Of a DNA stretch of 47,404 nt, positions 2,042 to 2,069 are shown in pieces. The position numbers were made by a program, and so were the translations under genes. The stretch's first letter is position 1; the number at the start of each line of letters is the position of its first letter. The notes beneath the pieces are model-generated. The model saw nothing but the letters and a program-made list of their open reading frames with translations, searched no databases and was not told the origin of the DNA. Location of the stretch: the NCBI RefSeq assembly GCF_003334335.1, contig NZ_QOWQ01000035.1; one strand, written 5' to 3'. Source of the stretch: Escherichia coli. Lineage in GTDB: Bacteria; Pseudomonadota; Gammaproteobacteria; Enterobacterales; Enterobacteriaceae.

Positions 2042-2069
2042 TCCCCTCGCCCCTCTGGGAAGAGGGTGA
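2042..2069. repeat. GC-rich palindromic element (cccctcgcccctctgggaagagggtga); related to motif at 29152-29252
   Basis: Imperfect palindrome; reverse complement shares cccagaggggcgagggga with the phnP-yjdP intergenic element. Confidence 0.45.

Follow-up and report, generated by a model that had tools for sequence, protein, structure and literature searches.

BoxC (PIT, TMECO) repeats in the phnP-yjdP and melA-melR intergenic regions of Escherichia coli: a full copy and two truncated relatives

Two intergenic regions of Escherichia coli, the spacer between the divergent genes melA and melR and that between the convergent genes phnP and yjdP, harbour members of the BoxC family of GC-rich repeats. 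With high confidence we read the phn region as a full type-A BoxC next to a decayed type-B copy and the mel element as an ancient, drifted remnant, all of them being structure-prone, unstable repeats and not regulatory signals. The additions at mel and phn support the published view of BoxC as a source of local instability. The well-studied melR-melAB control region is found to hold an uncatalogued, Escherichia-specific BoxC remnant adjoining CRP2, and two of the three copies in the analysed sequence share one decay product, the hairpin minus one G block. Beyond annotation the importance is small, as the family has been described three times (BoxC in 1992, PIT in 2000, TMECO in 2015) and the phn copy is listed.

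BoxC (Bergler et al. 1992; Bachellier et al. 1999) made its first appearance in the paper by Bergler et al. on the envM (= fabI) sequence. Hoyne et al. 2000 came upon it again and called its members 'potential intrastrand triplex' (PIT) elements, the name used also by Hoyne & Maher 2002, and Holder et al. 2015 (PMC4666352) renamed it TMECO. The TMECO pattern, CCCTCNCCC-N3-6-GGGNGAGGG-N3-GGGNGAGGG, consists of one C block and two G blocks with the loop TTA in type A and CCG in type B, and 23 copies are known in MG1655 (PMC4666352). All 23 were found again at their published coordinates and all lie outside annotated genes, as do the three copies reported here; the subtype loops were TTA for type A and CCG or TCG for type B. 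E. coli genomes are known to contain about 20-30 of these intergenic GC-rich repeats. The genome-wide count proposed in an initial annotation of this DNA was made with a 63-nt query around the phn copy; over the full set of 5,426 complete E. coli genomes the median was 19 places in each (range 2-34), and the MG1655 assembly NZ_CP032667.1 had 21. Other copies lie between tusA and zntA, after tkt and upstream of fabI (envM), the last being the site where the name BoxC was coined. Within the library searched, no work on TMECO or PIT later than 2015 was found.

Besides the core, BoxC has about 15-20 nt of conserved flank, which is not emphasised in the published papers. Alignment of the K-12 copies gave GCNCGGACGGTC as the 5' flank and GAA(C/A)AGGCC-GCAC as the 3' flank of type A, and a 5' flank ending in GTTTTCT for type B. 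Sequence profiles were built from 14 K-12 copies for type A, with the window's own copy left out (79 model positions), and from eight K-12 copies for type B. The window, that is the whole stretch of 47,404 nucleotides analysed, matches E. coli K-12 MG1655 in reversed orientation. Its melA-melR spacer is identical to that of MG1655, and its phnP-yjdP spacer is 100% identical over a 156-bp query to a K-12 W3110 assembly, with matching MG1655 segments. The features discussed are collected in Table 1.

Table 1. Positions of genes, control sites and BoxC-related elements in the window
Feature	Position	Strand	Remarks
melA	507-1862	-	
MelR site 2	about 1941-1958		estimated from -174.5
CRP1	centre about 1968.5		estimated
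Next MelR site	about 1979-1996		estimated
melR-proximal MelR site of the 1/1' pair	about 1999-2016		estimated; remnant begins 14 bp beyond
Truncated type-A BoxC remnant, melA-melR spacer	2030-2073	+	type-A profile E=1.5e-7, 26.3 bits
Interval of the initial annotation	2042-2069	-	inside mel remnant; 18-mer common to phn copy at 2042-2059
CRP2, melR promoter	about 2071-2092, centre about -41.5		own mapping from PMC2377442 distances; adjoins remnant
melR -10 CATAAT	2111-2116	+	own mapping
melR transcription start	about 2123-2124	+	own mapping
melR	2145-3053	+	
phnP	28371-29129	+	
Full type-A BoxC/TMECO with conserved flanks	29143-29209	-	type-A profile 62.3 bits, E=8.5e-19
9-bp direct repeats GAGGGGCGA	29177-29185 and 29247-29255	+	one from each BoxC copy
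Degenerate type-B BoxC partner	29210-29255	+	type-B profile E=8.2e-7, 23.9 bits, 12-nt gap
yjdP	29276-29605	-	

The initial annotation had singled out the sequence TCCCCTCGCCCCTCTGGGAAGAGGGTGA at 2042-2069, the reverse complement of which (TCACCCTCTTCCCAGAGGGGCGAGGGGA) was said to share a core with a site between phnP and yjdP. This core is exact over 18 nt: the 18-mer CCCAGAGGGGCGAGGGGA occurs at exactly two sites in the window, 2042-2059 (-) and 29173-29190 (+), the latter having been placed one base off at 29172-29189. With a tolerance of up to three mismatches, matches averaged 0.05 over 100 dinucleotide-preserving shuffles, and no shuffle reached two. Beyond the 18-mer, both copies have GTC on its 5' side and, after one mismatch, AGAGGG on its 3' side, and the mel copy also retains the 5' flank of the family. 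Since the copies align past the 18-mer, the relationship survives the test that had been set for it, namely alignment beyond the core. The description of both copies as imperfect palindromes built from CCCTC and GAGGG blocks, and that of their divergent and convergent gene contexts, proved accurate. In K-12 the exact 18-mer is found at five places (fabI-ycjD, zntA-tusA, pstA-pstB, phnP-yjdP and melR-melA), and 12 further sites with at most three mismatches lie within the K-12 loci fetched. The suggested dispersed family of small repeats distinct from REP/BIME is thus BoxC (= PIT = TMECO), with which a comparison had rightly been proposed under the name 'box C'. As the phn copy is already a catalogued BoxC/TMECO, the family is not new, and the reading of a new repeat family is wrong only in the word 'new'. 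A third related element in the window, at 29229-29251, lay outside the initial finding.

Between phnP and yjdP, the type-A copy has a 36-nt core at 29153-29188 (-), CCCTCGCCCCTCTGGGGAGAGGGTTAGGGTGAGGGG, that matches the strict three-block pattern (regular expression match at 29154-29188 (-) plus a terminal G). Both its sequence and its NC_000913.3 coordinates, 4,314,285-4,314,320, are identical to those of TMECO no. 22 in Table 1 of Holder et al. 2015, whose Table S2 gives its distances as 23 nt to phnP and 88 nt to yjdP (PMC4666352). The third element is a type-B copy with the 5' flank GCGCTCGTTTTCT and the hairpin CCCTCTCCCCATTGGGGTGAGGG at 29229-29251; it has only two blocks, one 12-nt G block being missing, and therefore fails the three-block pattern. 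The two copies are arranged head-to-head, as are those at lldD-trmL in K-12. Inverted A/B pairs of TMECO are common and often decay to hairpins, and TMECO loci are unusually variable (PMC4666352). Variability is evident also at phn, where alignment with the O55:H7 strain DEC5D revealed a 70-bp deletion between the two GAGGGGCGA repeats that cuts both hairpins. The junction of this deletion was present in 353 of the 5,426 genomes, mostly O157:H7 among the matches listed, and the deletion between these BoxC-derived 9-bp repeats marks the O157/O55 lineage.

The mel element begins with the 5' flank ATACTCGGAGAGTC (2030-2043), continues with the C block CCCTCGCCC (2044-2052), the loop CTCTG (2053-2057) and a first G block with one mismatch, GGAAGAGGG (2058-2066), after which T and GAAAACC follow. 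Its profile match at 2030-2067 (+) reaches from the 5' flank through the C block and the loop to the first G block (model positions 9-46 of 79) and stops there because the second G block of about 11-12 nt is missing. Only the C block matches the strict TMECO pattern exactly; the assignment to BoxC consequently rests on profile similarity and flank over about 38 nt, and the two-block element is filed as a derived remnant and not as a canonical member. From its sequence it is best described as a truncated type-A BoxC remnant. It is absent from the published list, which has no Table 1 coordinate in the melR-melA spacer and no mention of melR in the supplementary text (PMC4666352). The minus strand of the remnant has a weak similarity to the type-B 5' flank, with E=0.03 when the whole window was searched and 0.003 for the small set of mel alleles. 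Both a fused tail-to-tail type-A/type-B pair and a simple loss of the second G block were considered as its origin, and the sequences fit either, because a type-A 3' flank resembles a type-B 5' flank read as its complement. Another remnant that is BoxC-like and hairpin-only, CCCCAAAGGGGAGAGGGGAC, was observed in the MG1655 yagA-yagE region (about 163-180 of locus L091), about 20 nt upstream of TMECO no. 3; nos. 3 and 4 both lie inside the annotated cryptic prophage CP4-6.

The mel remnant was found at the same place and with the same length in every E. coli allele examined, with no presence/absence polymorphism, and it is present also in E. whittamii, Escherichia sp. E1V33 and the divergent E. 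coli SCPM-O-B-8794. The type-A profile matched seven of seven Escherichia mel alleles (E 1e-8 to 4e-4) and none of the five non-Escherichia sequences scored, and the alleles of E1V33 and SCPM have a perfect copy of the type-A consensus flank on the 5' side, GCTCGGACGGTC. Where both anchors could be found, the distance from the MelR-site motif to the melR -10 region (2004-2128) was 109 bp in Escherichia, 97 bp in 13 non-Escherichia loci, mainly of Citrobacter, Salmonella and Kluyvera, and 77 bp in Enterobacter sp. Ag1, the non-Escherichia spacers being AT-richer. The presence of the remnant in all Escherichia alleles and the difference of 109 versus 97 bp point to an entry before these Escherichia lineages split. 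A search through 80 MelR loci for a full BoxC in other genera found none in the melR upstream spacer and a few lone blocks elsewhere in the loci, so that the full ancestral copy is deduced and not observed. For an 'unstable' element the fixed position and length are slightly surprising and might be a sign of constraint. The segment is 27.5% divergent between E. coli alleles.

Another observation from the same spacer is a hyperdivergent island at 1955-2085, from the CRP1 region to CRP2, in which the K-12-type and the TUM2826/FDAARGOS_1298-type alleles differ at 36 of 130 sites without indels, while the flanks have only 1/100 and 1/71 differences. Identity is 80-90% in about 1,011 genomes, and the divergence of the island exceeds that of the E. 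whittamii allele (12%). This pattern suggests an import from an unsampled lineage or a locally raised mutation. The E. coli AQ15 locus (L008, NZ_CP043487.1) was left out of the comparison; it is a patchwork of unrelated gene fragments (cadC, melR, pmrB, proP, rdcB), all annotated as partial pseudogenes, and looks like a mis-assembly.

Samarasinghe et al. 2008 (PMC2377442) give CATAAT as the melR -10 hexamer, 41 bp as the distance of CRP2 upstream of the melR start, 237 bp as that between the melR and melAB starts, and -174.5, counted from the melR start, as the centre of MelR site 2. When these distances are mapped onto the window, where the inverted repeats CCCATAAACTCAGAT and ATCTGAGTTTATGGG are visible at the MelR sites, the remnant would span about -94 to -51 of melR, between the last MelR site and CRP2. 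By this mapping it lies upstream of both transcription starts and thus outside the melR and melAB transcripts. At class II CRP promoters, the alpha subunit of RNA polymerase uses its C-terminal domain to contact DNA upstream of the CRP site. The remnant adjoins CRP2 in this contact region, so an effect on melR expression is possible. Published changes to this spacer reduced MelR repression when they amounted to 5 bp; a 10-bp deletion restored repression, and insertions of 41 and 91 bp restored it at least partially. These constructs suggest that helical phase may count more than sequence between the MelR sites and CRP2.

The mechanism that we favour starts with a type-A BoxC that would have entered the mel spacer before the Escherichia lineages examined diverged, lengthening the interval from the last MelR site to CRP2 by a net 12 bp, and that would then have lost its second G block and drifted since. 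BoxC elements would be neither terminators, promoters nor operators but structure-prone repeats, able to form a hairpin in every case and an intrastrand G*G:C triplex only in single-stranded DNA and only when all three blocks are present. Their direct and inverted repeats of 9-12 nt may promote slippage or illegitimate recombination, which could either remove a G block, leaving a hairpin-only remnant, or delete the DNA between neighbouring copies. The mel remnant would act as a spacer inside the MelR repression complex, where its length and helical phase but not its sequence matter, and it is probably only spacer DNA. We infer both this order of events and the lack of function; the family identity and anatomy of the elements, their copy numbers and lineage distribution, and the deletion alleles are shown by the sequences. 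Local sequence instability is the best-supported reading of what BoxC elements demonstrably do, because of the 70-bp phn deletion and the two independent copies that each lack one G block. The intrastrand triplex has been formed in vitro on the isolated G-rich single strand, with CD and NMR evidence from consensus type-A and type-B oligonucleotides, and was not detected in double-stranded DNA or in vivo (PMC4666352). To judge from their blocks, the mel remnant and the type-B phn remnant have no third strand and should be unable to form it. The view of BoxC as a selfish or neutral repeat is a default position and no demonstration.

One alternative is that the mel copy has a function in cis at the melR promoter, either as a protein site, as the initial annotation had suggested, or as a cruciform or bent element that shapes the placement of the alpha C-terminal domain or the MelR repression complex. 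Its location directly upstream of CRP2, its constant place and length in all Escherichia alleles examined and a compensatory C-G to T-A change in the B2-like allele are in its favour. This is, however, the one compensatory change in the hairpin, which is weak (-6.6 kcal/mol, z = -0.9) and broken in the E1V33, SCPM and B2-like alleles; pairing across seven Escherichia alleles was 87.5% against 85.4% in shuffles, 89 of 500 shuffles being as high, and selection for the structure is therefore not supported. The high divergence of the segment, the mapped mel determinants (five MelR sites and two CRP sites), which do not include the remnant, the repression retained with correctly phased insertions and deletions, and the regulation of mel without the remnant in the other enterobacteria measured also speak against it. 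We find this alternative decidedly improbable, and on the sequence comparison a protein-binding role is not favoured because the copy decays freely between Escherichia lineages. A bolder scenario, which we rate as unlikely, holds that a BoxC landed in the melR spacer of the Escherichia ancestor (+12 bp between the MelR activation sites and CRP2/site R), was trimmed to a hairpin and, as a GC-rich palindrome at the alpha C-terminal domain contact, altered the level of melR expression or autorepression in Escherichia compared with Salmonella and Citrobacter, BoxC generally decaying by stereotyped loss of one 12-nt G block. If such stereotyped loss is true, the published three-block catalogues undercount the family and its promoter footprint.

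For the phn elements, a bidirectional terminator or an RNA-stabilising hairpin between the convergent genes might be envisaged, the former having been raised in the initial annotation for both loci. The elements follow phnP by 23 nt and yjdP by 88 nt, REP-type hairpins are known to protect 3' ends, and the phn hairpins are stable on both strands, at -8.3 to -13.7 kcal/mol as DNA with z from -2.7 to -3.1 in three of four folds, the type-A copy read on the + strand having z = -0.8 only and the type-B hairpin -8.7 kcal/mol with z = -3.0 (ViennaRNA folds, which represent Watson-Crick hairpins only). No T-run follows the mel hairpin, or either phn hairpin on either strand, however, and scans found no terminator-like site at 29143-29255 or at 2030-2073; the tails read GACCGATT, TTAGGG, GCGATGCC and AGAAAACG. 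Nor was a promoter-like site found at the mel or phn elements, and Rfam searches gave no credible family at either locus, permissive scans yielding only sub-threshold eukaryotic noise. The O157/O55 lineage has lost 70 bp of the pair, and elsewhere in the family copies are as frequent upstream as downstream of genes (PMC4666352). As Holder et al. relate the findings of Hoyne & Maher 2002, the elements neither worked as promoters or terminators nor affected RNA polymerase (PMC4666352). A terminating or stabilising role at phn is accordingly very doubtful. Lastly, that the mel and phn copies resemble each other by chance or by convergence of two GC-rich palindromes without common descent is barely credible: the blocks, C/T against G/A, are indeed of low complexity and the strict pattern is not matched at mel, but no shuffle had two matches even at three mismatches, the profile without the window's own copy matches mel at E=1.5e-7 including the non-palindromic 5' flank, and sister lineages carry the exact flank consensus at mel. 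Together, shuffles, profile and flank effectively refute chance similarity.

The relation of these elements to known systems is closest for BoxC/PIT/TMECO itself, with which the phn copy shares the C-G-G blocks, the TTA loop, the flanks, the intergenic site, the roughly 20 places per genome and the inverted pairing with type B, while the mel and second phn copies, which keep two of three blocks, fail the pattern and are not on the MG1655 list, are decay products. Like REP/BIME (PU) repeats, the window elements are short, GC-rich, imperfectly palindromic, intergenic and dispersed, but the consensus is unrelated and the window's matches to naRNA4 lie elsewhere, with none at the mel or phn sites. 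REP/BIME elements have IHF, gyrase and RAYT transposases as partners; we know of no such partner for BoxC. Rho-independent terminators are likewise GC-rich stem-loops just downstream of convergent genes, yet BoxC has no U-tract, gave no scan match and was negative in the published terminator assays. As in H-DNA and triplex mirror repeats, a full BoxC forms a very stable intrastrand purine-motif triplex on isolated single strands in vitro, and its loci are variable; the instability picture fits the 70-bp phn deletion, whereas the triplex goes undetected in double-stranded DNA and in vivo and the mel and 29229-29251 remnants have no third strand. ERIC/IRU elements, which are MITE-like, are also small, non-coding and multi-copy and differ between strains in presence or absence and decay, but BoxC is much shorter, essentially absent from phages and rare on true plasmids. 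To our knowledge, neither terminal inverted repeats nor target duplications nor a cognate transposase have been described for BoxC.

The search for vehicles of BoxC among phages and plasmids was essentially negative. Only three of 50,697 phage records contained BoxC, and two of these are records of the Campylobacter phages A18a (MG065686.1) and A11a (MG065691.1), with three places each at 100% identity to the E. coli BoxC core, for which contamination of the records with E. coli DNA is a likelier source than the phages themselves. In the plasmid collection BoxC was rare on genuine plasmids. Several records filed as plasmids have a length of 4.8-4.9 Mb and are clearly chromosomes of E. coli, and 162 of the 233 records with BoxC-like matches are replicons of Sinorhizobium, Rhizobium and Azospirillum, which hints that alpha-proteobacteria may have similar GC-rich block repeats.

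Some further features of the window were observed in passing. Rfam naRNA4 (RF02564), a family that we take to represent REP/BIME-type repeat clusters, has six matches, at 17392-17668 (+), 20144-20224 (-) and 47042-47225 (-), including three tandem 77-nt units at 100-bp spacing between yjdM and yjdN. A full-length match to the enterobacterial sRNA family STnc630 at 11561-11726 (-), with 181.8 bits, overlaps the 3' end of basS and the pmrR region. At 44107-46254 (+), two ORFs of 139 aa and 559 aa are split by a stop, with a SECIS_2 match at 44519-44573 (87.1 bits), and the pair looks like a selenoprotein gene (fdhF-like) with an in-frame UGA that is read through.
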